Below, piece after piece: positions 6,855 through 37,477 of a stretch of 64,000 nt of DNA (position 1 is its first letter; each line of letters opens with the position of its first letter). Both the position numbers and the translations under genes were made by a program. The DNA is taken from assembly GCA_965230945.1 (NCBI GenBank), contig OZ246397.1:539925-603924 (forward strand), written 5' to 3'. A model generated the notes under the pieces. The model ran no database searches and was not told where the DNA came from. It worked only from the letters and a program-made list of their open reading frames with translations. This stretch comes from an uncultured Gammaproteobacteria bacterium (GTDB taxonomy: Bacteria > Patescibacteriota > Microgenomatia > PFEM01 > JAPLYW01).

Positions 6855-7725
6855 AAAGAAATATTGGTTAGGTTTTAGTGCCTTTGCGGGTATTGGTCCT
6901 AAGAAGTTCTTTCTTCTTAGAGATTATTTTGGCTCTGCTAAAAAAGCTTGGCTGGCTTCTTCTTTTGAGTTATTAAAGGCTGGCTTAGGTCAAAATCTGC
7001 TGACGAGTTTTGTTGAATTTAGAAAAAAACTAGATTTAGATTCGTATTTTCTTCGTCTGCGTGAAAACGGGATAGAGTGCCAAACACTAGAAGATAAAAA
7101 TTATCCAGAAAACTTAAAAAATATTGATAATCCGCCCTTTCTGTTATTTGTGAAAGGAAATTTAAAGACCAATGATAAATGGGCGATAGCTGTTGTTGGC
7201 TCAAGAAGGATGTCTAATTATGGAGAGTTGGTTACTAAAAAATTAGTTAAGGATTTGGTCGGTTTTAATTTAACCATTGTTTCTGGTCTAGCGCGGGGTA
7301 TTGATACCATGGCTCATAAAACGGCTTTAAGATTTAAAGGAAGAACGATTGCCGTTTTGCCTTGTGGTTTAGATATGGTTTATCCGCCGGAAAACAAAAA
7401 CTTGGTTAAGCAAATTATTGATAAGGGAGGAGCCGTGGTTTCTGAATATCCACCTGGTTTTCGAGTTTCAAGAGGTAATTTCCCAGCCCGCAATCGCATT
7501 GTTTCCGGACTGTCTTTAGGGGCTTTAATTATTGAAGGAGCAGAAAGGTCAGGTTCTTTAATTACCGCTCGTTTGGCAGGTGAGCAAGGCAGGGAAGTTT
7601 TTGCCGTTCCCGGTCAAGTTACTTCCAAAAACTCCTTTACGCCTTCTTTGCTTATTAAGATGGGGGCTAAGTTGGTTTGGGATGTTAATGATATACTGGA
7701 AGAATTAAATCTTAAAAAAAGATAA
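6844..7725 (+). CDS. dprA: DNA processing protein DprA (Smf)
   Basis: Rossmann-like DprA core (VVGSRRMSNYG, SGLARGIDTMAH, LPCGLDMVYPPEN, GSLITAR). Confidence 0.85.
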   Translation: MKDEKKYWLGFSAFAGIGPKKFFLLRDYFGSAKKAWLASSFELLKAGLGQNLLTSFVEFRKKLDLDSYFLRLRENGIECQTLEDKNYPENLKNIDNPPFLLFVKGNLKTNDKWAIAVVGSRRMSNYGELVTKKLVKDLVGFNLTIVSGLARGIDTMAHKTALRFKGRTIAVLPCGLDMVYPPENKNLVKQIIDKGGAVVSEYPPGFRVSRGNFPARNRIVSGLSLGALIIEGAERSGSLITARLAGEQGREVFAVPGQVTSKNSFTPSLLIKMGAKLVWDVNDILEELNLKKR

Positions 7726-15144: not shown

Positions 15145-15431
15145 AGATTTTGTGTATTTTATAGTATTTTGGTAAAATTTCCCTTATGAGTAAAAAGAAA
15201 GCTTTGAAAGAACGACCCCTTACTTAAGGAATTCAGAAAATATTTTGTTTATGTAAATAATTTGAGAAATAAATTGGAATTTGTGAAGGATCGACAAAAA
15301 AAGAGAGGGAGTAACCTTCGGACAAAACCTTAGGTGTGCCCTCTCATCGTGATAATAATATCATACTCCTTTTTGAGAATTTGTCAAGGTTTTTTCCTAT
15401 TTGAGCGTTAGCGAAAACAAGGTTTCCTTAT

Positions 15432-15462
15432 TTGACATTTATATCTTTGATGTTCTAAAAAT
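15432..15462 (+). promoter_or_regulatory. sigma70-like promoter candidate TTGACA-N18-TAAAAT facing the structured element
   Basis: TTGACA at 15432-15437 and an A/T-rich -10 at 15456-15462; the 11-mer TATTTGACATT also occurs at 16963-16973. Confidence 0.3.
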
Positions 15463-15476
15463 AGGCTCATATCTTT

Positions 15477-15581
15477 AAGGTGCGGAGGTAGAATACCCAA
15501 GGTTTGAATAGCTTTCAACCTTTAAGGTTGAAATGTTGTAACATCCTGCAACCAGTTTGATCGAAAGGACTGTAGCACCTT
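15477..15581. ncRNA. structured RNA element of unknown class in the 738-nt region between rsmA and the fusion/aspS operon
   Basis: Closing helix AAGGTGC(15477-15483)/GCACCTT(15575-15581) around a perfect 9-bp hairpin TTTCAACCT-tta-AGGTTGAAA (15513-15533). Confidence 0.3.
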
Positions 15582-24025: not shown

Positions 24026-24883
24026 TTGAAGTTTAAATTTTTTATGAAAAGAATTGTTATTCATATTAATCCAGATTTGGATGCTGTTGCTTCAGTTTGG
24101 CTTATCAAAAGATTTTTGCCTCGTTGGGAAAAAGCAGAAATAGGTTTCTGTCAGGCAGAAACAACTTTTGATGGGAAGCCAGTAGATAGTGATCCTGATA
24201 TTTTACATCTTGATGTTGGTTTAGGTAAACTTGATCATCATCAAACTGATTGTTTTACTTCGGCAGTTAAACTCACTTTAGATTTCATCTTAGAAAAAAG
24301 AAAAGGACAAGAGTTGAGCCCTTTAGATTTAGAGGCTTTAGAGCTCATGGTAGAAACGATTAATGAAATTGATAATGCGCGAGATTTGAATTGGCCGGAA
24401 GTTAAAAAAGAGCGTTATGATTTTTATCTCCATTCTATTTTAAGTGGTTTAAGAAGAATGGGGAAAACTGATATTGAACTAGTTGAATACGGTTTTTTAG
24501 GGCTAAATGCTGTTTTTAAGAATCTTAAAGCAGGGATAAAAGCCAAAGAAGAAATAAAAAAGGGGATTGAATTTCAGACTCCTTGGGGAAAGGCAATTGC
24601 CTTGGAGACCGGTAATGAATTATTTTTATGGGAAAGTGAAAAAGCTGGTTATTATTTAGTGGTTAAAAAGGATCCTGACGATGGTGATGTTAGAATTTAT
24701 GCTCGTTATGATAGTGATGTTGATTTGAAAAATGTTTATCAAAAATTTAAAGAGATGGATAAAGAATCTGATTGGTTTTTACACGCTTCCGGTAAGTTGT
24801 TATTAAATGGATCTCGGGTTAAAAAGATGAAACCAACAAAGTTAAGTTTAGAGCAAGTAATTGGGGTGTTGAAAAATGGTTGA
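24026..24883 (+). CDS. DHH-family phosphoesterase (NrnA-like nanoRNase/pAp phosphatase)
   Basis: IHINPDLDAVAS (motif I) and GKLDHHQTD (DHH motif). The likely ATG is at 24044; the track start at 24026 is a TTG. Confidence 0.6.
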   Translation: MKFKFFMKRIVIHINPDLDAVASVWLIKRFLPRWEKAEIGFCQAETTFDGKPVDSDPDILHLDVGLGKLDHHQTDCFTSAVKLTLDFILEKRKGQELSPLDLEALELMVETINEIDNARDLNWPEVKKERYDFYLHSILSGLRRMGKTDIELVEYGFLGLNAVFKNLKAGIKAKEEIKKGIEFQTPWGKAIALETGNELFLWESEKAGYYLVVKKDPDDGDVRIYARYDSDVDLKNVYQKFKEMDKESDWFLHASGKLLLNGSRVKKMKPTKLSLEQVIGVLKNG

Positions 24884-25199
24884 TTGTATTTTTTGTCAAA
24901 TTGCTCAAAAAAAGATACCAGCAGAGATTGTTTATGAAGATAAAAAGATCATTGCTTTTAATGATGTTAACCCTAAAGCACCTGTCCATATCTTAATTAT
25001 TCCTAAGAAACATATTAAAGATTTTATTAGTTCTGGAAAATTCTTTCCTAAGATTTTAAAAGTTGCTAAAGACTTAATTAAAAAGTATAATTTAGATAGG
25101 AATGGTTATAGATTAGTAGTCAATGGCAGGAGTGCAGCGCTTGTCGATCATTTACATTTACATCTTTTAGGAAAAATAACTGTTGATAGGAATGTTTAG
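24876..25199 (+). CDS. HIT-family (histidine triad) nucleotide hydrolase
   Basis: 107 aa; CIFCQI N-terminus; HLHLHLLG histidine triad at the C-terminus. Confidence 0.8.
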   Translation: MVDCIFCQIAQKKIPAEIVYEDKKIIAFNDVNPKAPVHILIIPKKHIKDFISSGKFFPKILKVAKDLIKKYNLDRNGYRLVVNGRSAALVDHLHLHLLGKITVDRNV

Positions 25200-25236
25200 G
25201 GGAAGTTATTCTAATAGGGTAAATTATTTTTAAGTA

Positions 25237-25307
25237 CGGGGCGTAGCTCAAAATAGAGCAGCGTACTTGGTGTACGATGTATAGTGGTTTAAATCCATTC
25301 GCCCCGA
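25237..25307 (+). tRNA. tRNA-Pro(UGG)-like element with atypical D- and T-loops, 36 nt upstream of the proS start; either a divergent tRNA or a tRNA-mimic operator
   Basis: Hand-folded cloverleaf. Acceptor CGGGGCG/CGCCCCG is 7/7 Watson-Crick. U8 A9. D-stem GCTC/GAGC with a 6-nt D-loop AAAATA (no G18G19). Anticodon stem GCGTA/TACGA. Loop CUUGGUG (U33, anticodon UGG, U at position 37). T-stem AGTGG/CCATT with loop TTTAAAT (no C56). Discriminator A; no encoded CCA. Confidence 0.45.
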
Positions 25308-25343
25308 CAAATTTAAAGAGATTAAGAAATAATATGATTTTCT

Positions 25344-26792
25344 ATGAATGAAAAAGAGAAGGTTAATTTTTCTTCTAAAGAATTAGGAGTTAAGGTGGAA
25401 TCAGATAAAATTTCTGAGTGGTATAATAAAATAATTAAAGAGGCTGATTTGATTGATCAAGGCCCAGCTAAAGGGACGATGGTTTTTCGTCCTTATGGTT
25501 ATGCTCTTTGGAAAGGAGTTCAAAAGAGTCTTGGGTTTAAAATAGAAAAGAATGGGGTTGAAGATGCTTATTTTCCTGCTATAATTCCAGAAAAACTTCT
25601 AGTTAAAGAAAAAGATCATATTGAAGGTTTTTCTCCGGAATTTTTACGTGTTCGAGGTAGAAGTGGAGAAATTGGAGTATTGAGGCCAACTTCCGAAGCT
25701 GTAATGTATCCATTATTTAAGAAGTGGATTCAATCTTACAGAGATTTACCCCTTAAAGTAAACCAGTGGTGTAATGTTTTTAGAGATGAGTTAAGAACGT
25801 ATGCTTTAATACGCACTTCTGAATTTCTTTGGCAGGAGGGTCATTGCGTGTATGCTTCAGCAAAGGAAAACGAAGAAGCAGTGATGGATTTTTTAAATAT
25901 GTATAAGAATTTTTTTCGTAATACTCTTGCTGTATCTCCTATTTTTGGGAAAAAAAGCGAAAAGGAAAAATTTGCAGGAGCTTTATATACTACAACTGGC
26001 GAAGCAGTTTTACCAGGAGGGAAAGCTCTTCAAGTTTGTACTTCTCATAATTTAGGGACAAATTTTGCAGAAGCCTTTGATATACAATTTTTAGGTAAAG
26101 ATGGCAAACAACATCACCCATATCAGACAAGTTGGGGTTTAAGCTGGCGGGTTATTGCCGCGATGATTATGAGTCACGGTGATAAAAAAGGGCTTATTTT
26201 TCCACCAGAAATGGCCCCTACGCAAGTAATAATTATACCTATTAAAGGTTCATCTGATGAAGTAGTTATGGAAGCAGCAAAATCTATAAAAGAAAGATTG
26301 TCTGATTTGAGAGTTGATATAGATAAGTCAGATGCAAGGCCAGGAGCTCGTTATAATTATTATGAACTTAGAGGAGTACCTTTAAGGATTGAAATTGGCG
26401 CCCGTGATATTCATAATAATCAGATAATAGTTGCAAATCGATTAACTGGTGATAAAAAAGCTCTGCCTTTAGGTGGTCAGCTTAGAAAAGGCATACAGTT
26501 GTCATTAACATCAATACAAGAGTCTTTATTAAAGAAATCTGAAAGTTTAGTTAAAGAAAGTACCAAAGATGTAAAGACATGGGAAGAATTTAAAGAGATT
26601 CTTAATAAAAATGGAGGTTTTCTGAGAACTTATCACTGTGGAAATAGAGATTGTGAACAACAAATTCAGGATGAAACAAAAGCAACATTAAGATGTATCC
26701 CTTTCGGTTATGAAAAATCAGAGGGAAAATGTGTTAGATGCGGAAAACCATCTAATTATGGTCAAAAAGTACTTTTTGCTAAGGCCTATTAG
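25344..26792 (+). CDS. proS: Prolyl-tRNA synthetase, archaeal/eukaryal-type (class IIa) with a C-terminal zinc-binding domain
   Basis: Motif 1 region FRPYGYALW, motif 2 FRDELRTYALIRTSEF, motif 3 GLSWRVIAAMIMSHGDKKG, anticodon-binding domain, C-terminal CGNRDC...CVRCGK. Confidence 0.85.
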   Translation: MNEKEKVNFSSKELGVKVESDKISEWYNKIIKEADLIDQGPAKGTMVFRPYGYALWKGVQKSLGFKIEKNGVEDAYFPAIIPEKLLVKEKDHIEGFSPEFLRVRGRSGEIGVLRPTSEAVMYPLFKKWIQSYRDLPLKVNQWCNVFRDELRTYALIRTSEFLWQEGHCVYASAKENEEAVMDFLNMYKNFFRNTLAVSPIFGKKSEKEKFAGALYTTTGEAVLPGGKALQVCTSHNLGTNFAEAFDIQFLGKDGKQHHPYQTSWGLSWRVIAAMIMSHGDKKGLIFPPEMAPTQVIIIPIKGSSDEVVMEAAKSIKERLSDLRVDIDKSDARPGARYNYYELRGVPLRIEIGARDIHNNQIIVANRLTGDKKALPLGGQLRKGIQLSLTSIQESLLKKSESLVKESTKDVKTWEEFKEILNKNGGFLRTYHCGNRDCEQQIQDETKATLRCIPFGYEKSEGKCVRCGKPSNYGQKVLFAKAY

Positions 26793-26800
26793 TATTTTCT

Positions 26801-27571
26801 ATGTTTATGGAATGTAGTAGTAAATTAACATTGTCAAATATTCCTTCCGATTATCCACTTCCTAACCTTTATTATTTCTCTTCCAAATTTTTAACAGAAA
26901 TTCGTAAACAGGTGACAGGTGCTGTTTCAATTTTAAATCAAAATGGTTTTGAAGAATGTCATTTCCCTTTTTTAGTTCCGAGAAGCCTTTTATTGTATTA
27001 TAAGAACTTAATATCTTTGGAAGATTTTATAAAAGTATATTCAGGGAAAGATAAGCGATCATATGCTTATTTGAGACCAGATGGTGTGTTTAGTCAAGGG
27101 ATCACTTTAGCAAAAGAAATGATTAAGAGTTATCGTAATTTACCCTTGAAATTATTCGAAGTATCCCCAAGCTATAAAAGATTAAAGAACAAAACCAAAG
27201 GGAATGTCTTTACTTCTCCAGAAGAGTCTTTTTCTATACAAGGTGGAGTATTTATTGAGGATAAAGACGAAAATGAATTTCTTCAGACGATTATTTCTAG
27301 AATTCTAAATAACTTCTCAATACCGTATATAGCCAAAAATAATAAATTATGTAAATATGGGGGAATAAATTATAGCACTCTTTTTAGTGACAATGAGATA
27401 AATCTCGCTAAAATTTGTGTTTTTGATCAAGAAGTTACTCGGGAAGCAAACATTTATTTTTTTAATAAAGAGGGAAGGAGATCTTTTCCATACATGTATA
27501 GCTTTAGCTTATCTCAAAACATTTTTTTAATTAGTCTTTTAAAAAATGAAAGAATAGGATTAGAAAAGTGA
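26801..27571 (+). CDS. ProRS-like paralog truncated to the N-terminal catalytic region (256 aa); no anticodon-binding or Zn domain
   Basis: YAYLRPDGVFSQGITLAKEMIKSYRNLPLKLFEVSPSYK parallels the proS segment [37 protein letters not shown]; very AT-rich. Confidence 0.55.
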   Translation: MFMECSSKLTLSNIPSDYPLPNLYYFSSKFLTEIRKQVTGAVSILNQNGFEECHFPFLVPRSLLLYYKNLISLEDFIKVYSGKDKRSYAYLRPDGVFSQGITLAKEMIKSYRNLPLKLFEVSPSYKRLKNKTKGNVFTSPEESFSIQGGVFIEDKDENEFLQTIISRILNNFSIPYIAKNNKLCKYGGINYSTLFSDNEINLAKICVFDQEVTREANIYFFNKEGRRSFPYMYSFSLSQNIFLISLLKNERIGLEK

Positions 27572-28995
27572 ATAACATATCAGAAGAGAAATTGATAGAT
27601 TGGCTGAAGTTTTATGTTAACTTTGGTGATATAGTAAATGATGATTTTCCTACTAAAGGAGCTTGTTCTTGGTACCCTTATGGATATTCTTTAATGAAGA
27701 ATATCCTTCATTTAGCATCAAATATTTTAATTAAGAAAGCTAAGTTTAAAGAGATTGTTTTACCATCTTTTGTTCATGGTGAAGATTTCATGAAAGAATG
27801 CAAAAATATAAAAGATTTTAGTGAACGTGTATATTGGTCGCCATTATATAGAAAAGACGATCTACATGTAGTAACTCCTACAATTGAAGCACAGTTAGGT
27901 GCTCTTTATAATAAATGGCTACAAGCAAATAAAAAACTTCCGTTTAAGTATTTTACGATAAGGGGAGTAGGTCGTTATGAAACTGGAAGGACAATTCCTT
28001 TATGGAAGGAACGTAACGTTTGGCCTTTTTTTGAAGGGTTAACGGTTCATAGTTCTTCATCTGATTTTTTAGCTACCATAAAACAACAAATAAATTTTAT
28101 GGAAGTTTTTTTTGAAGAACTTGGAATTCCTGTTTTAATCCTTGAAAGACCTAAGATTAATTCTCGTTTGTGTGAATATTCTGAGCGAAGAATAGAAGCT
28201 GTTACGATAACTAAAGATAAGAGGGTTGTAATACTAGCAAATATATATGATTTAGGAGAAATATTTAGTAGAGTATACGATATCTTTTATATCGTTAAGA
28301 ATACTAAATATTATGCCTTAACTTCTGCGATAGGTTTATCTGGTAGGGTGTTGGCTACCTTGTTGACTATAAATGGCGATAAAGATGGTTTTATTCTTTC
28401 TCCAATGATTGCTCCAATTAAGTTAGCGATATTACCAATTTATAATAAACCAGCTTTTACTAAGCTAGCAAAAAAGATAGAAGTTTATTTAAGTAAAAAA
28501 GGTATAGTTTCAAAGAATTTTCCGGCTGTGTCTTCGTTGGGAGAGAGGAGAAGAAAAGTAACAGCAATGGGGATACCTTTTTTAATAGAGATTGGATCAA
28601 ATGAAATAAAAAGCTCGTCAGTATTAATAAAAGAACGTGTTCTTACTCATAATTCTACAGAATGTGAAATAAAAGAAATACCTTATATTATTAAGAAACG
28701 AGGCAAAATAATGAATAAGTTTATTAAGCAGAAAGCATTTAAAGAATTCAATTTACTTACTAAGTCTGTTAAGTTAAAGAAAAATTTTCTTTATTGCCTT
28801 AAAGATGAGATTTTAACAGAATCATTTTTTTGTAATAATCCAAATTGTTATAATAAAATGGCAGAATTGTCAAATAGAGAAATAATTGGTCGTAATTATA
28901 AAGCTAAAATAAATAAAAAATCTAAATGTATAGTTTGTGGAAAAACAGCATCTCAAGGTATTTATTTTGGTATTAAATGGAAGGGAGAAAAGTGA
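27568..28995 (+). CDS. Full-length divergent ProRS-family paralog (475 aa: catalytic, anticodon-binding and Zn-ribbon domains)
   Basis: PTKGACSWYPYGYSLMK, VTPTIEAQLGALYNKWLQANKKLPFKYFTIRGVGRYETGR (motif 2 altered), GLSGRVLATLLTINGDKDG (motif 3), SPMIAPIKLAILPI, C-terminal CNNPNC...CIVCGK. Confidence 0.6.
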   Translation: MNNISEEKLIDWLKFYVNFGDIVNDDFPTKGACSWYPYGYSLMKNILHLASNILIKKAKFKEIVLPSFVHGEDFMKECKNIKDFSERVYWSPLYRKDDLHVVTPTIEAQLGALYNKWLQANKKLPFKYFTIRGVGRYETGRTIPLWKERNVWPFFEGLTVHSSSSDFLATIKQQINFMEVFFEELGIPVLILERPKINSRLCEYSERRIEAVTITKDKRVVILANIYDLGEIFSRVYDIFYIVKNTKYYALTSAIGLSGRVLATLLTINGDKDGFILSPMIAPIKLAILPIYNKPAFTKLAKKIEVYLSKKGIVSKNFPAVSSLGERRRKVTAMGIPFLIEIGSNEIKSSSVLIKERVLTHNSTECEIKEIPYIIKKRGKIMNKFIKQKAFKEFNLLTKSVKLKKNFLYCLKDEILTESFFCNNPNCYNKMAELSNREIIGRNYKAKINKKSKCIVCGKTASQGIYFGIKWKGEK

Positions 28996-28997
28996 TT

Positions 28998-29912
28998 ATG
29001 GATTTTTTAAAAAAGGGAGACACTATTGGGGTGGTTGCTCCTGGCTCGCCAGTGCCTAAAAAAAATATAAAAAAGGGAGTTAATGTTCTTAGTAATATGG
29101 GCTTTAATGTAAAATTAGGTAAGCATATTTTTAGTATTACTGGCTATACGGCAGGAATTGCAAAAGATCGTGCTAATGATATTAATAGGTTTTTTTCTGA
29201 TTCTCAGATTAAAGCGATAATTGCTGCTCGTGGTGGTTATAATTGCAATCAGATCTTACCATTTTTAGATTATGGACTTATTAAAAAAAACCCAAAGATT
29301 TTCTTAGGTCTTAGTGATGTAACTGCAGTGTTAAATGCTATTGTTTTGAAATCGAATGTTATAACATTTCATGGCCCAGTTCTTTTAATGATAGGGGGTG
29401 GAAGAGATGGTAAAGTATTCTCTAAGTATTCCAAAGAAAATTTTGAAAAAATACTTATGAATGAAAAGAAAAGGTTTATTAATGTAGTTAATGCCTTTGA
29501 TAATTGGATTGTTTTAAATAAAGGAAAAGCTGTAGGCAAACTTTTTGGCGGGAACCTCTCTTCTTTAATAAGTATTATTGGTACATCATATGAACCAAAT
29601 TGGAAAAATGCGATTCTAATGTGGGAAACGCTGGAAGAAAAATTAGAAATGATAGATCAGATGTTAACACATCTGAGATTAGCTGGAATTTTTGATAAAA
29701 TTAATGGTATGATGGTAGGTAAGTTTGTTGATACTAAACAGGGAAGAGATACAGAGATTATTAAAATGATTTTAGAACAATGCAGGGGATATGATTTTCC
29801 GATAATTTATGGGGTTGATTTTGGCCATACTAACGAAAATTTAATATTACCTATAGGTGGGGAAATTAGTTTTAATACAGAAGAAGAATTTCTTAAGATT
29901 ATTAAATATTAA
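28998..29912 (+). CDS. Peptidase S66 family (LD-carboxypeptidase LdcA / microcin-C immunity MccF-like serine hydrolase)
   Basis: IGVVAPGSPV, nucleophile motif LGLSDVTAV, C-terminal GVDFGHT...PIGGE His motif. An alternative ATG at 28977 overlaps the upstream stop. Confidence 0.7.
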   Translation: MDFLKKGDTIGVVAPGSPVPKKNIKKGVNVLSNMGFNVKLGKHIFSITGYTAGIAKDRANDINRFFSDSQIKAIIAARGGYNCNQILPFLDYGLIKKNPKIFLGLSDVTAVLNAIVLKSNVITFHGPVLLMIGGGRDGKVFSKYSKENFEKILMNEKKRFINVVNAFDNWIVLNKGKAVGKLFGGNLSSLISIIGTSYEPNWKNAILMWETLEEKLEMIDQMLTHLRLAGIFDKINGMMVGKFVDTKQGRDTEIIKMILEQCRGYDFPIIYGVDFGHTNENLILPIGGEISFNTEEEFLKIIKY

Positions 29913-29923
29913 ATTAGAAATTT

Positions 29924-31057
29924 ATGGGGCCTTATCAGGCGAAGCCAGGCGGTGTTATTTCTTATTTAGGCAATAAGATTTATCCTCCAGTTGAGGATGT
30001 ATTAGCTGTTTCTTGGCCACCAAAAGATTTAGTAGACAGAGTTGGATCTATTTATCGAGATAAGAAGTGGTACCACCTGCATAAAATTGATGCCTCAATT
30101 TTTACTGCTACGACACAATTCTTCCAAAGTATAAATGCTGATTGGGTTAATCTACCTCTTACCACTATGATGATTTCTTCTCCTGGTGAAGTTTATGCTG
30201 GACAAAGACTAAATTACACAACAGATACTTTACCTATGGAAATTCCTAATTGGTTTCATACTGGTAATAGAGTGTTTCTTTCAGAATCTTCACAGTTTTA
30301 TCTAGAATTAAGATTAATAATTGATAAGCTGGATAAAGTTTTTTCGATTTATAATTCTTTTAGGAAGGAAAAAGCTGATGCTACTCATTTATCAGAATTC
30401 CAACATGTTGAGTTTGAAGGACATGTTAATTTCAAAAATAACATAAATACTTTTATCAATTTGATTAATTATATTTTAAATTTTCTTTTACAAAATAACG
30501 AAGATAATTTATCTTTTTTTCTTGAAGATCAAGATATAAATGAATTATCTCGAAGCATGAAAAAGATTTTTAAGGTTCCGTTTGTCGAAATTTTAAAAGT
30601 TCTTTTTAAGGAAACTGGAAATAATAAATATAAAGAATTTTCAATGAAGAATTTTGGGTCGTGGGAAGAAATTTTTATTACTCAGATTTACGGCGGTAAT
30701 GTGTTAGCTCTTAATTTCCCTATGTTGCAGATCCCTTTTTATCATGAAATAAGTAAGAAAAAAGTTGGGGGTGTTCCTGTAGCTGAAAATGCAGATTTAA
30801 TACTTCAAGGATATAGAGAAACTGTTGGGAGTGGATTAAGAATTACAGATCCAAAGGCTTTGGCAGAAAAAGCAAAAATTTTTAATCTACCTATAGATGA
30901 CTATAAACCTTACCTTGAGACACGTAAGATGAAGAAATATAAAACATCGGCTGGTTTCGGTTTAGGTTGGCAAAGATTTACGCAATGGATTTTAAAATTA
31001 CCATATATTTGGGAAACAACCCCAACTCCTCGTGGACACACAAAACCAAGGCTTTAA
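29924..31057 (+). CDS. Standalone class IIb aaRS catalytic core (AsnA / AsnRS-AspRS-like); no anticodon-binding domain
   Basis: Motif 2 FSIYNSFRKEKADATHLSEFQHVEFE, motif 3 SAGFGLGWQRF, C-terminal IWETTPTPR (compare AsnRS IRDVIPFPR). Confidence 0.6.
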   Translation: MGPYQAKPGGVISYLGNKIYPPVEDVLAVSWPPKDLVDRVGSIYRDKKWYHLHKIDASIFTATTQFFQSINADWVNLPLTTMMISSPGEVYAGQRLNYTTDTLPMEIPNWFHTGNRVFLSESSQFYLELRLIIDKLDKVFSIYNSFRKEKADATHLSEFQHVEFEGHVNFKNNINTFINLINYILNFLLQNNEDNLSFFLEDQDINELSRSMKKIFKVPFVEILKVLFKETGNNKYKEFSMKNFGSWEEIFITQIYGGNVLALNFPMLQIPFYHEISKKKVGGVPVAENADLILQGYRETVGSGLRITDPKALAEKAKIFNLPIDDYKPYLETRKMKKYKTSAGFGLGWQRFTQWILKLPYIWETTPTPRGHTKPRL

Positions 31058-31107
31058 TTAAAAACAACATTTTTTATTACTTGATAATTTACAGAATATA
31101 ATCGATA

Positions 31108-31263
31108 ATAAAAAAAGAGCTTTTAGGGAAAATAGTTTTAAAAATTAAAGAAATTGCTAAAGAGAAAAAAATAGATAAAGGCTACAAGGTGCAAATTAAC
31201 TGCGGAAGAAAGGCGGGTCAAATAGTACCTCATTTGCATTTTCATTTGCTCGCTGGTTTTTAA
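31108..31263 (+). pseudogene. 3' fragment of a second HIT-family gene (about 51 codons, no start codon)
   Basis: In-frame translation IKKELLGKIVLKIKEIAKEKKIDKGYKVQINCGRKAGQIVPHLHFHLLAGF followed by a stop. The HIT C-terminal block and histidine triad are present, the N-terminal nucleotide-binding half is absent, and a stop lies immediately upstream at 31105-31107. Confidence 0.55.
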
Positions 31264-35678: not shown

Positions 35679-36089
35679 ATGGTTGATGATAAAAAAGTTT
35701 CCCAGATTCTAAGACAGGTAAGGCAGAGAAGCGATGAGAGGTTTCCTGAAGATAAAATACCTGCCCCTGAAGGTGGTATCCTAGATAAGAATCTTTTAGA
35801 TAATTCTGAAAAAAAGAGTTCTTTAGAATCTGAACAGGAAAAAGTACAGGATGAATCTTGGGCTAAAAAAAGAATAGCTGAACTTGAGGCAGAGATAAAA
35901 AAACTAACTTATGAAAGACAGCAAGAGATGAGAGCTAGATATGAACAGAAAAAGAAGGAAGAGGAGAAAAAAGAGGCTTCAGTACCGGTAGTGGCAAGCA
36001 AACCTAAGAGAGGATTTTGGGGGCGGCGGATTAAGTCTGCTCAACAACAGACTCAGCCAGAAACGGTTGGAAGGAGAGTCAGCGGCTAA
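35679..36089 (+). CDS. hypothetical charged coiled-coil protein
   Basis: 136 aa, K/E-rich; stop overlaps the cysS start. Confidence 0.4.
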   Translation: MVDDKKVSQILRQVRQRSDERFPEDKIPAPEGGILDKNLLDNSEKKSSLESEQEKVQDESWAKKRIAELEAEIKKLTYERQQEMRARYEQKKKEEEKKEASVPVVASKPKRGFWGRRIKSAQQQTQPETVGRRVSG

Positions 36090-37477
36090 TGAGGCTTTAT
36101 AATACTGCCAGTAGAAGATTGGAAGAATTTAAGCCCATTAAAAAAGGAGAGGTGGGTATTTATTCCTGTGGCCCCACTGTTTATTGGAATCAGCATTTAG
36201 GCCATATGTATGCCTATGTGCAATGGGATGTTCTAGTTAGATTTTTTAAATATTTAGGTTACAAAACTAAATGGGTAATGAATATTACTGATGTTGGCCA
36301 TCTGACTTCTGATGAAGATAGTGGCGAAGATAAAATGGAAAAGGGAGCCAAAAGAGAAGGTCTAAATGTTTGGCAAATTGCCGAAAAGTATCTTAAACAG
36401 TTTTTAGAAAGTTTAAAACTTCTAAATATTCAAAAACCAGATGTTTTATCTAAAGCTACCGGTCACATTCAAGAACAAATAGATCTTATTAAAAAAATAG
36501 AGAAAAATGGTTTTACTTATAAAACCAAGACAGGTCTTGTTTTTGGTACTTCCAAGTTTACTGGTTATGCTAAGTTTGCCAAATTGAATTTAGAAAAACT
36601 TAAGATTGGCAAAAGAGTAAAAGTTGATAAAGAAAAAAAACAACCTTGGGACTTTCTTTTATGGGTAACTAATCAACCTCAGCATGTTATGCAGTGGGAT
36701 AGCCCTTGGGGACGAGGCTTCCCAGGTTGGCATATTGAATGTACGGCCATGTCAACCAAATATCTGGGAGAAAGATTTGATATTCACACTGGTGGCGTTG
36801 AGCATATTCCCGTTCATCATACTAATGAGATTGCTCAAGCTTATGGAGCTTTTGGTCACCAAGCGGTTAATTATTGGCTTCATAACGAATGGTTGGTTTT
36901 TGCAGGAGAAAAAATGAGTAAAAGCTTGGGTAAGAGTATTTTAGCAATGGATTTGATTAAAAAAGGTTATGACCCTTTAGCCTTTAGATATTTAATTTTA
37001 AATTCTCATTATCGAGGTGGACTTAATTTTACCTGGAAGTCTTTACGGGGTGCCCAAACAGCCCTCAATAGACTAAAGGCGATCATTACCGAATTAAAGA
37101 AAGATAAAGAAGGGAATTCTTCGGACAAGAAAGAAGAGGTCTTTAAAGAGAAATTTTTAGAGGTGATGAATGATGATCTTAATATTCCTCAGGCTTTGGC
37201 TTTAGTTTGGGAAGTTTTAAGATCTGATCTTAGCTCTTCTGCGAAGCTGAAGTTGGCCTTAGATTTTGATCAGGTTTTAGGATTGGATCTTGATAAGCAA
37301 ACAGCCAAGAAATTAATAGTTCCTGAAAAGATAAAGAAATTATTAAAGGAAAGAAATAAGCTAAGAGGAAAAAAAGATTGGCAAAAAGCAGATGAAGTTC
37401 GTAAACAAATAGAAGAATTAGGTTGGGTACTCAAGGACACCACCAAAGGAACGATAGTAGAAAAGAAATTTAATTGA
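36089..37477 (+). CDS. cysS: Cysteinyl-tRNA synthetase
   Basis: Class I HLGH (HIGH variant), KMSKS, zinc-binding Cys (CGPTVYW), C-terminal DALR-like domain. Confidence 0.9.

Follow-up and report, generated by a model that had tools for sequence, protein, structure and literature searches.

What purpose is served by three genes of the prolyl-tRNA synthetase (ProRS) family that stand side by side with a tRNA-Pro gene, a serine hydrolase and a further synthetase-like enzyme? This question is raised by the region at 24.8-31.3 kb of the window, by which is meant the whole 64,000-nucleotide stretch of DNA analysed here. The initial annotation had described the region as a cassette centred on aminoacyl-adenylate chemistry. 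Profile assignment of the open reading frames (ORFs), together with Rfam, found all of its elements present at the coordinates listed below; every gene lies on the + strand and they are closely packed. The answer offered here is that the operon tRNA-Pro(UGG)–proS–C–D–S66–F would be a peptide-free producer of the agrocin/microcin C type, together with its immunity, directed to a mimic of prolyl-adenylate. By analogy with the characterised systems, this reading is given about an even chance of being correct.

24876-25199, + strand: HIT/HinT-type nucleoside phosphoramidase, 107 aa (PF01230, E 3e-18)
25237-25307, + strand: tRNA-Pro(UGG) (Rfam RF00005, 46.2 bits against a gathering score of 29)
25344-26792, + strand: proS, canonical archaeal/eukaryal-type prolyl-tRNA synthetase, 482 aa (TIGR00408, 526 bits, cutoff 437)
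26801-27571, + strand: C, ProRS-type catalytic-domain-only protein, 256 aa (PF00587, sub-threshold at 21.7 bits)
27568-28995, + strand: D, full-length divergent ProRS paralog, 475 aa (TIGR00408, 208 bits, cutoff 437)
28998-29912 (alternative start 28977), + strand: S66 serine hydrolase, MccF-type, 304-311 aa (PF02016 and PF17676)
29924-31057, + strand: F, stand-alone AsxRS-type class II core, AgnA-like, 377 aa (PF00152, 89 bits)
31103-31263, + strand: remnant of a second, different HIT gene, C-terminal 48 codons without a start codon

The block and its surroundings

The block tRNA-Pro(UGG)–proS–C–D–S66–F was found in six contigs from the candidate phyla radiation (CPR): the window, L003, L015, L016, L017 and L019. 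At least four sets of flanks are represented, since the window, L003, L015 and L016 have unrelated genes to either side of the block; the flanks of L017 and L019 are those of the window. The block, including its tRNA, is a mobile, conserved unit, to which HIT was possibly added in the window lineage. The occurrence of the cassette in other genomes with different flanks upholds the mobility implied by the earlier description of a horizontally acquired module; F, whose family is present in many CPR lineages, was not acquired by this genome alone.

The tRNA gene, previously called only tRNA-Pro-like, was missed by ARAGORN and by the default filters of Rfam and was detected only in the permissive Rfam mode. 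Its D-loop is short, and it has C1:G72 and A73. In L003, L015, L016, L017 and L019 an orthologous gene precedes proS, and compared with these orthologs the window tRNA shows a paired change of G19:C56 to A19:U56 (D-loop G to A, T-loop C to U), with L017 as a G:U intermediate. This covariation indicates that the window gene encodes a genuine, working tRNA-Pro(UGG). In a more distant locus, L006, whose D is 42% identical, there is no proS and a tRNA-Pro(AGG) lies directly upstream of C-D. In all, tRNA-Pro is linked to C-D in seven of the seven CPR C-D loci with an upstream tRNA (the six of the window type and L006), and no tRNA adjoins the module genes in any of the 28 other module loci scanned. 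The L006 tRNA-Pro (7213-7286) has an AGG anticodon, unusual for bacteria, and its CCA end is encoded.

The gene proS heads the protein-coding part of the block in every occurrence. Its product contains PF00587, PF03129 and PF09180 and retains TSHNLG, SWGLSWR and the C-terminal ...AKAY. It alone among the three ProRS-family proteins is canonical, as had been supposed: against the TIGR00408 cutoff of 437, proS scores 526 bits, D 208 and C 24.7.

The AT-richness of the cassette is real but modest. The GC content of C, D, S66 and F is 0.29-0.32 against 0.356 for the whole window, and at third codon positions (GC3) it is 0.19-0.23 from HIT through F against 0.28-0.36 for most flanking genes; the trinucleotide distance is 0.19-0.25 in the cassette region against 0.12-0.19 for controls. 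The AT-rich paralog half noted previously is visible in these figures. Scans for promoters and terminators gave counts at or near chance.

The same region could in principle be read as coincidental housekeeping synteny, made up of proS pseudogenes, a murein-recycling LdcA and an ordinary AsnA. Housekeeping genes do flank the cassette in the window, which favours this; against it, the linkage survives rearranged flanks and spans phyla. The further evidence on this alternative comes from the proteins themselves and is given with them below. A CysRS gene is also present at 36086-37438, 5 kb downstream of the cassette.

The intact HIT gene (GC 0.284, GC3 0.19) matches HinT models with E ~1e-18, below their cutoffs. 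It is next to the block in no contigs but three close relatives that have common flanks, the window, L017 and L019, and its membership of the cassette, assumed in the initial annotation, is accordingly weak; a role as an accessory detoxifier is possible. The HIT start is overlapped by 8 nt by a gene for a 285-aa protein (24026-24883) with weak ChrB_C and DHH-like signals and a ...LDHHQTD... motif, conserved only in L017. The HIT remnant, which follows an in-frame upstream stop, ends in ...PHLHFHLLAGF (...GRKAGQIVPHLHFHLLAGF) before its own stop codon and by eye is ~35% identical to the intact HIT. It is seen only in the window and in the identical contigs L001 and L002. It may be the scar of an island insertion; L017 and L019 share the flanks yet lack it.

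ProRS paralogs, S66 hydrolase and AsxRS-type core

D has the catalytic core, the anticodon-binding domain and the zinc-containing C-terminal domain of a ProRS, with a conserved ...KWKGEK tail. From CPR to Myxococcus, the family shows no variation at the R/E of motif 2, at the R of motif 3, in the four cysteines that bind zinc or at T105/E107, the threonine and glutamate by which ProRS grips the alpha-amino group. The residues of the proline pocket (TSH, SWG, WxEGH) are replaced. These features suggest that D is an active adenylate-handling enzyme with an altered substrate. The family is small: an indexed search gave ~28 proteins, and ~12 clusters among 1.84e9 representatives bear the D-family ...G.K..GEK C-terminus.

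C corresponds to a catalytic domain only. Its AlphaFold2 model (mean predicted local distance difference test score, pLDDT, 77; predicted template modelling score, pTM, 0.78) gave ProRS catalytic domains as the top Foldseek matches (1nj1, E 1.9e-14), and the arginines of motifs 2 and 3 are missing. The C and D families were matched by hhalign with 89% probability, and by sequence C is a paralog of the catalytic domain of D. Only 21 homologs of C were found. The C stop and the D start overlap by 4 nt in the window, and the two also overlap in L004, L006 and the Streptomyces locus L008; in Myxococcus, C overlaps S66 and S66 overlaps D. C is probably a non-catalytic dimer partner of D.

Both proteins fall short of a canonical ProRS, since they lie below the TIGR00408 cutoff and the proline pocket or the arginines are altered. 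They are nevertheless not decaying copies, in keeping with the earlier assumption. The ratio of nonsynonymous to synonymous substitution rates (dN/dS), measured against two relatives, was 0.13-0.20 for C and D (0.13-0.14 for D), like the values for proS and F; purifying selection acts on C, D, S66 and F, which are accordingly not pseudogenes. On these grounds and on the invariant D-family motifs, an origin of C and D as pseudogenes or tandem duplicates was rejected, and with it the first element of housekeeping synteny. The C and D ORFs are intact in most loci. In L015 (4317-5755) D is split into ORFs of 344 and 136 aa, which may reflect a frameshift, an assembly error or incipient decay.

Ranking just below the D family were further ProRS-like families with non-canonical C-termini (...SRRI/ARRL, ...RCTSP), among them P0192, P0204, P0210-P0216, P0229-P0233 and others. 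More uncharacterised groups of ProRS paralogs therefore exist. No paper on ProRS paralogs of the C/D kind was found in the literature.

The S66 protein carries the triad motifs GLSD, E and GHT. The best NCBIfam model for it is that of LdcA (NF008424), a point in favour of housekeeping synteny, but the score was 138 bits against a cutoff of 378. Against the Protein Data Bank (PDB), it scored 137-147 bits with MccF-type chains and 75-92 bits with LdcA. An LdcA-type murein LD-carboxypeptidase was rejected on these two grounds; by sequence the protein groups with MccF, as the initial annotation had favoured.

F consists of the PF00152 core alone and has no OB anticodon-binding domain, as had been noted before. 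Its best named models include AsnA and AsnRS, which again would suit a housekeeping enzyme, and all the curated cutoffs are missed by wide margins: asnS 132 bits (cutoff 414), AsnA 108 (389) and aspS 75 (353). The match to the archaeal AsnA structure was 40 bits. With these scores and without the OB domain, F does not qualify as an AsnRS, an AspRS or an AsnA. The motif 2 sequence SFRKE..HLSEFQH.EFEG and the motif 3 sequence GFGLGWQR are invariant in the family. The idea that F is the only AsxRS of the organism was also rejected, as in the relative L015 a full-length AsxRS is encoded separately, next to the block. With C and D conserved, their ORFs mostly intact and the D motifs unchanged across phyla, with the S66 protein nearer to MccF, and with this second AsxRS in L015, coincidental housekeeping synteny is largely refuted and hardly credible.

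A second alternative is resistance only: S66 and HIT would destroy imported mimics, and the synthetase-like proteins would be decoys or insensitive replacements. S66 and HIT are both known immunity folds, and actinobacteria or other producers may serve CPR bacteria as hosts. Stand-alone MccF homologues are, in addition, able to confer resistance to microcin C (PMC8323819). The proteins described above fit this poorly. None of D, C and F can replace a synthetase, because D has lost the proline pocket and scores below the cutoff, C lacks the catalytic arginines and F is without a tRNA-binding domain. A purely hydrolytic defence would also hardly account for two conserved adenylate-forming cores, and the corresponding genes in agrocin, Xenorhabdus and Streptomyces loci, described below, accompany tailoring enzymes and exporters. 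Resistance as the sole function is judged improbable.

Counterparts in antibiotic clusters and in other phyla

The initial annotation had not recognised the gene combination from any described system. It does have a described counterpart. From sequence comparisons this is the core of the agrocin 84 cluster (AgnA, AgnC0/AgnC1 and AgnC5), parts of which are common with microcin C. AgnA is reported to have an aaRS adenylation domain, where aaRS denotes an aminoacyl-tRNA synthetase, and AgnC1 to be remotely ProRS-like and preceded by the conserved small ORF AgnC0 (PMC8323819); agn-like clusters were noted by Travin et al. 2021 (PMC8323819). On pAgK84, agnA, agnB1 (methyltransferase), agnB2 (resistant LeuRS), agnC1, agnC4 (amidohydrolase) and agnC5 ('MccF-like') were confirmed.

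F and AgnA are 28% identical (E 1.6e-29), and the identity of AgnA to the corresponding core rises to 31% in L004, 40% in Streptomyces and 44% in Myxococcus. The S66 protein and AgnC5 are 28% identical (E 5e-42), the values for Streptomyces and Myxococcus being 34% and 40%. The D family was matched to AgnC1 by hhalign with 88% probability (E 3e-6, 184 columns). A tblastn search of plasmids with D returned only genuine proS genes and did not recover agnC1. AgnA would correspond to F, AgnC0/AgnC1 tentatively to C/D and AgnC5 to S66, and a genuine aaRS stands in both clusters, LeuRS (AgnB2) there and ProRS here. The window unit differs in that it has no AgnB1-type methyltransferase, AgnC4, radical S-adenosylmethionine (SAM) enzyme, dehydrogenase, sugar genes or AgnG exporter, and in that it includes a tRNA gene and occupies a chromosomal locus of a CPR host. 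D is distant from AgnC1 and keeps the full zinc C-terminal domain; AgnC0 has 139 aa, as against a complete, if degenerate, catalytic domain in C.

The window has in common with microcin C an S66 hydrolase of the MccF type and, comparable to MccH, a HIT gene. An MccD-like methyltransferase, an MccE-N-like pyridoxal phosphate (PLP)-dependent decarboxylase and an MccE-C-like GNAT protein are added to the likeness in sister modules of CPR, Myxococcus and Streptomyces. There is no MccA peptide and no ThiF-type MccB in the window, and a blastp search with MccB, over the ORFs at 15-41 kb of the window and those of the related loci, gave no match; the aaRS-derived cores would instead form the link to the nucleotide, free of peptide. 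No MccD/AgnB1-type SAM enzyme, AgnC4 amidohydrolase or exporter was found in window 15-41 kb either, although these are present in sister modules.

In the ascamycin cluster, the canonical AlaRS AcmD is resistant as well as charging tRNA, the AlaRS-like AcmF no longer has the ATP-binding residues, and AcmE removes the aminoacyl group (PMC12945691). The arrangement of a canonical cognate aaRS, a paralog of the same type and an aminoacyl-removing hydrolase is therefore shared. D, however, is ProRS-like and retains the ATP-binding residues, the hydrolase there is of the alpha/beta type and here S66, and the ascamycin system has a sulfamate as its nucleoside and no AgnA-like enzyme. F further resembles the archaeal AsnA-like asparagine synthetase (AS-AR) and E. 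coli AsnA in being a stand-alone AsxRS core without an anticodon-binding domain, but its sequence is nearer to that of AgnA, and S66 and other aaRS-like genes accompany it.

Within CPR, F belongs to a wider module. Hundreds of homologs at 50-59% identity were found across Patescibacteria, and S66 adjoins F in 38 of the 46 CPR loci with usable flanks. The commonest order is F, a SAM methyltransferase and S66, followed by a ~380-aa protein on the opposite strand. The latter (family c3) is HisRS/HisZ-like, PF13393 matching 8 of 13 members, and had no sequence match in the PDB. In lineages with genetic code 25 it is replaced by a ~375-aa AlaRS-like core (c5), and no relation between the two families was detectable. 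Variant F modules add radical SAM enzymes, GNAT proteins, a PLP decarboxylase or a kinase-like protein. One type of methyltransferase (c7 and that of L034) is homologous to MccD and AgnB1, the decarboxylase of L034 to the N-terminal half of MccE, and the S66 proteins to MccF. Genuine synthetases repeatedly adjoin the module: ProRS in three lineages (the window group, L027 and L063), CysRS in L014/L022, immediately upstream of F, GlyRS in L012 and L004; five loci have a full-length AsxRS. No paper on these CPR modules was found in the literature.

Two side observations concern such loci. In L059 (5672-6853) and L061, both code-25 CPR, a second class II core of the Asp/Lys type, 385-393 aa, adjoins F; by eye it resembles EpmA/PoxA, and a ~500-aa radical SAM protein follows. 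In L027, a LOOT RNA (RF03000, 87.6 bits) lies at 15406-15526, a few kb downstream of a proS–F–methyltransferase–AsxRS–kinase-like–S66 locus.

Outside CPR, a D-family profile matched loci in two Myxococcus species (L005, L007) and three Streptomyces genomes (L008, L009, L010). In all of them C and D are accompanied by an AsxRS core, S66, a GNAT of the RimL/MccE type and an amidohydrolase-like protein. The GNAT of Myxococcus is homologous to the C-terminal half of MccE, and in Streptomyces it is fused to the amidohydrolase-like domain (six-gene set at L008 5737-11970); amidohydrolases of the AgnC4 type occur in L004, L005 and L008. The Streptomyces set adjoins an ATP-grasp enzyme, an aminotransferase, an MFS transporter, a condensation-domain protein and, by sequence, a probable P450. 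The set in these two genera is a candidate for making a phosphoramidate that resembles prolyl-AMP, for example phosmidosine, and no description of a pathway to this prolyl-AMP mimic was found in the literature.

The megaplasmid of Xenorhabdus bovienii CS03 (L069 2026-10676) carries, in one operon, genes for AgnA-like, AgnB1-like methyltransferase, S66, nucleoside phosphorylase, LeuRS (leuS), ProRS-like and MFS transporter proteins, apparently an undescribed agrocin-84-like operon. A ProRS-like protein accompanies LeuRS in two clusters, agn and this one, and the type of scaffold therefore does not set specificity; plausibly, it is the co-located genuine aaRS that gives the specificity of the product.

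On the symbiosis plasmids of Bradyrhizobium barranii/elkanii (L067 7901-11686), S66, an AsxRS core, a HAD protein and a SAM methyltransferase lie between insertion sequence (IS) elements, next to nodU. Their proteins are 41-53% identical to CPR proteins, which suggests a recent transfer between phyla. On plasmids of Pantoea agglomerans (L066 8713-9996), a gene annotated as GNAT encodes a fusion of GNAT with an AsxRS core of the AgnA type, and an MFS transporter gene comes after it.

These homologous sets in antibiotic-type clusters, with the conservation of the block and the selection on its genes, support the central part of the initial annotation, that of a functional, mobile, non-housekeeping unit centred on aminoacyl-adenylate chemistry.

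A proposed function and its alternatives

The producer reading was reached because, among characterised systems, these parts are used only by agrocin 84, microcin C and ascamycin, which make or resist non-hydrolysable mimics of aminoacyl-adenylates. On this basis the operon would build such a mimic and shield its producer from it. Canonical ProRS and the co-transcribed tRNA would provide Pro-tRNA(Pro). D, which keeps ATP and alpha-amino-acid contacts and the tRNA-binding domains and has a remodelled side-chain pocket, would supply the acyl moiety as a heterodimer with the dead core C, either by direct adenylation or from Pro-tRNA(Pro), as with AcmF in ascamycin synthesis. F, of the AgnA type and AsnA-like, could then carry out the ATP-dependent formation of an amide or N-P bond, joining the acyl group to a nucleotide. 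The S66 enzyme may cleave the acyl-N bond, for self-immunity or for processing, and HIT could cleave the P-N bond. As with AcmD and AgnB2, proS might be the substrate supplier, the resistant target, the only copy or more than one of these. The bond-forming step assigned to each enzyme is drawn from analogy with these systems. The product would most likely be a prolyl-AMP mimic, because the target is indicated by the genuine aaRS that these clusters retain (LeuRS for agn and Xenorhabdus, the AlaRS AcmD for ascamycin).

Several observations weigh against this proposal. Within ~10 kb the window variant lacks a methyltransferase, an amidohydrolase, a GNAT and an exporter. The C family matched AgnC0 only weakly (hhalign E 0.0075, probability 5%), and the literature gives no biochemical function for AgnA or AgnC1, so that the analogy rests on an uncharacterised pathway. 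Unlike AcmF, D keeps its ATP-binding arginines, which makes tRNA dependence uncertain. The link to tRNA-Pro and ProRS is also not universal: ARAGORN found no tRNA in the C-D locus L004, no tRNA adjoins C-D in the Streptomyces or Myxococcus loci, and there is no genuine ProRS within 8-10 kb in either of these two versions. No second proS is visible, and an immunity copy is thus indistinguishable from the housekeeping proS.

Finally, the module is common in genome-reduced CPR bacteria and could have an internal, non-toxic purpose. The operon would then make an aminoacyl-nucleotide or aminoacyl-tRNA-derived cofactor, a signal or an envelope precursor, or carry out a tRNA-dependent conversion of an amino acid, with proS and tRNA-Pro as suppliers only. 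The occurrence of F-S66 in many CPR lineages with tiny genomes, the lack of an exporter in CPR versions, the tight linkage of tRNA-Pro to C-D and the retention by D of tRNA-binding domains and alpha-amino-acid contacts would all fit such a use. The nearest characterised sets, agn and mcc, are nonetheless antibiotic and immunity systems, the same genes are found on plasmids, between IS elements and in regions resembling biosynthetic gene clusters, and partners of the MccF, MccE-C and MccD types have no known role outside antibiotic or immunity chemistry. The distribution is patchy as well (hundreds of clusters for F, ~12 for D and 21 homologs for C). An internal use is considered unlikely.

The production of a mimic may be part of a broader pattern, which we propose only tentatively. 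CPR bacteria and, by horizontal transfer, rhizobial, Xenorhabdus, myxobacterial and Streptomyces replicons would hold a large, unrecognised family of peptide-free microcin-C/agrocin-type systems, in which mimics, each aimed at the aaRS next door, are put together by an AgnA-like core and another class II core of the Pro, His or Ala type. In the window, tRNA-Pro and ProRS would feed a tRNA-dependent step of the D·C heterodimer.

Agrocin 84 is a commercial biocontrol antibiotic. The comparison isolates a conserved minimal core of that system, consisting of an AgnA-like enzyme, an S66 hydrolase and a second aaRS-like enzyme, which is spread from CPR to Streptomyces. The window version is among the smallest, with five genes and a tRNA, and is attractive for reconstitution; the Streptomyces loci are candidates for the phosmidosine pathway. 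If the proposal is true, it reveals the re-use of synthetase cores for making inhibitors of synthetases and provides a rule for genome mining, in which the neighbouring genuine aaRS names the target. It would also suggest that ultra-small episymbiotic bacteria carry toxins directed at aminoacyl-tRNA synthetases.

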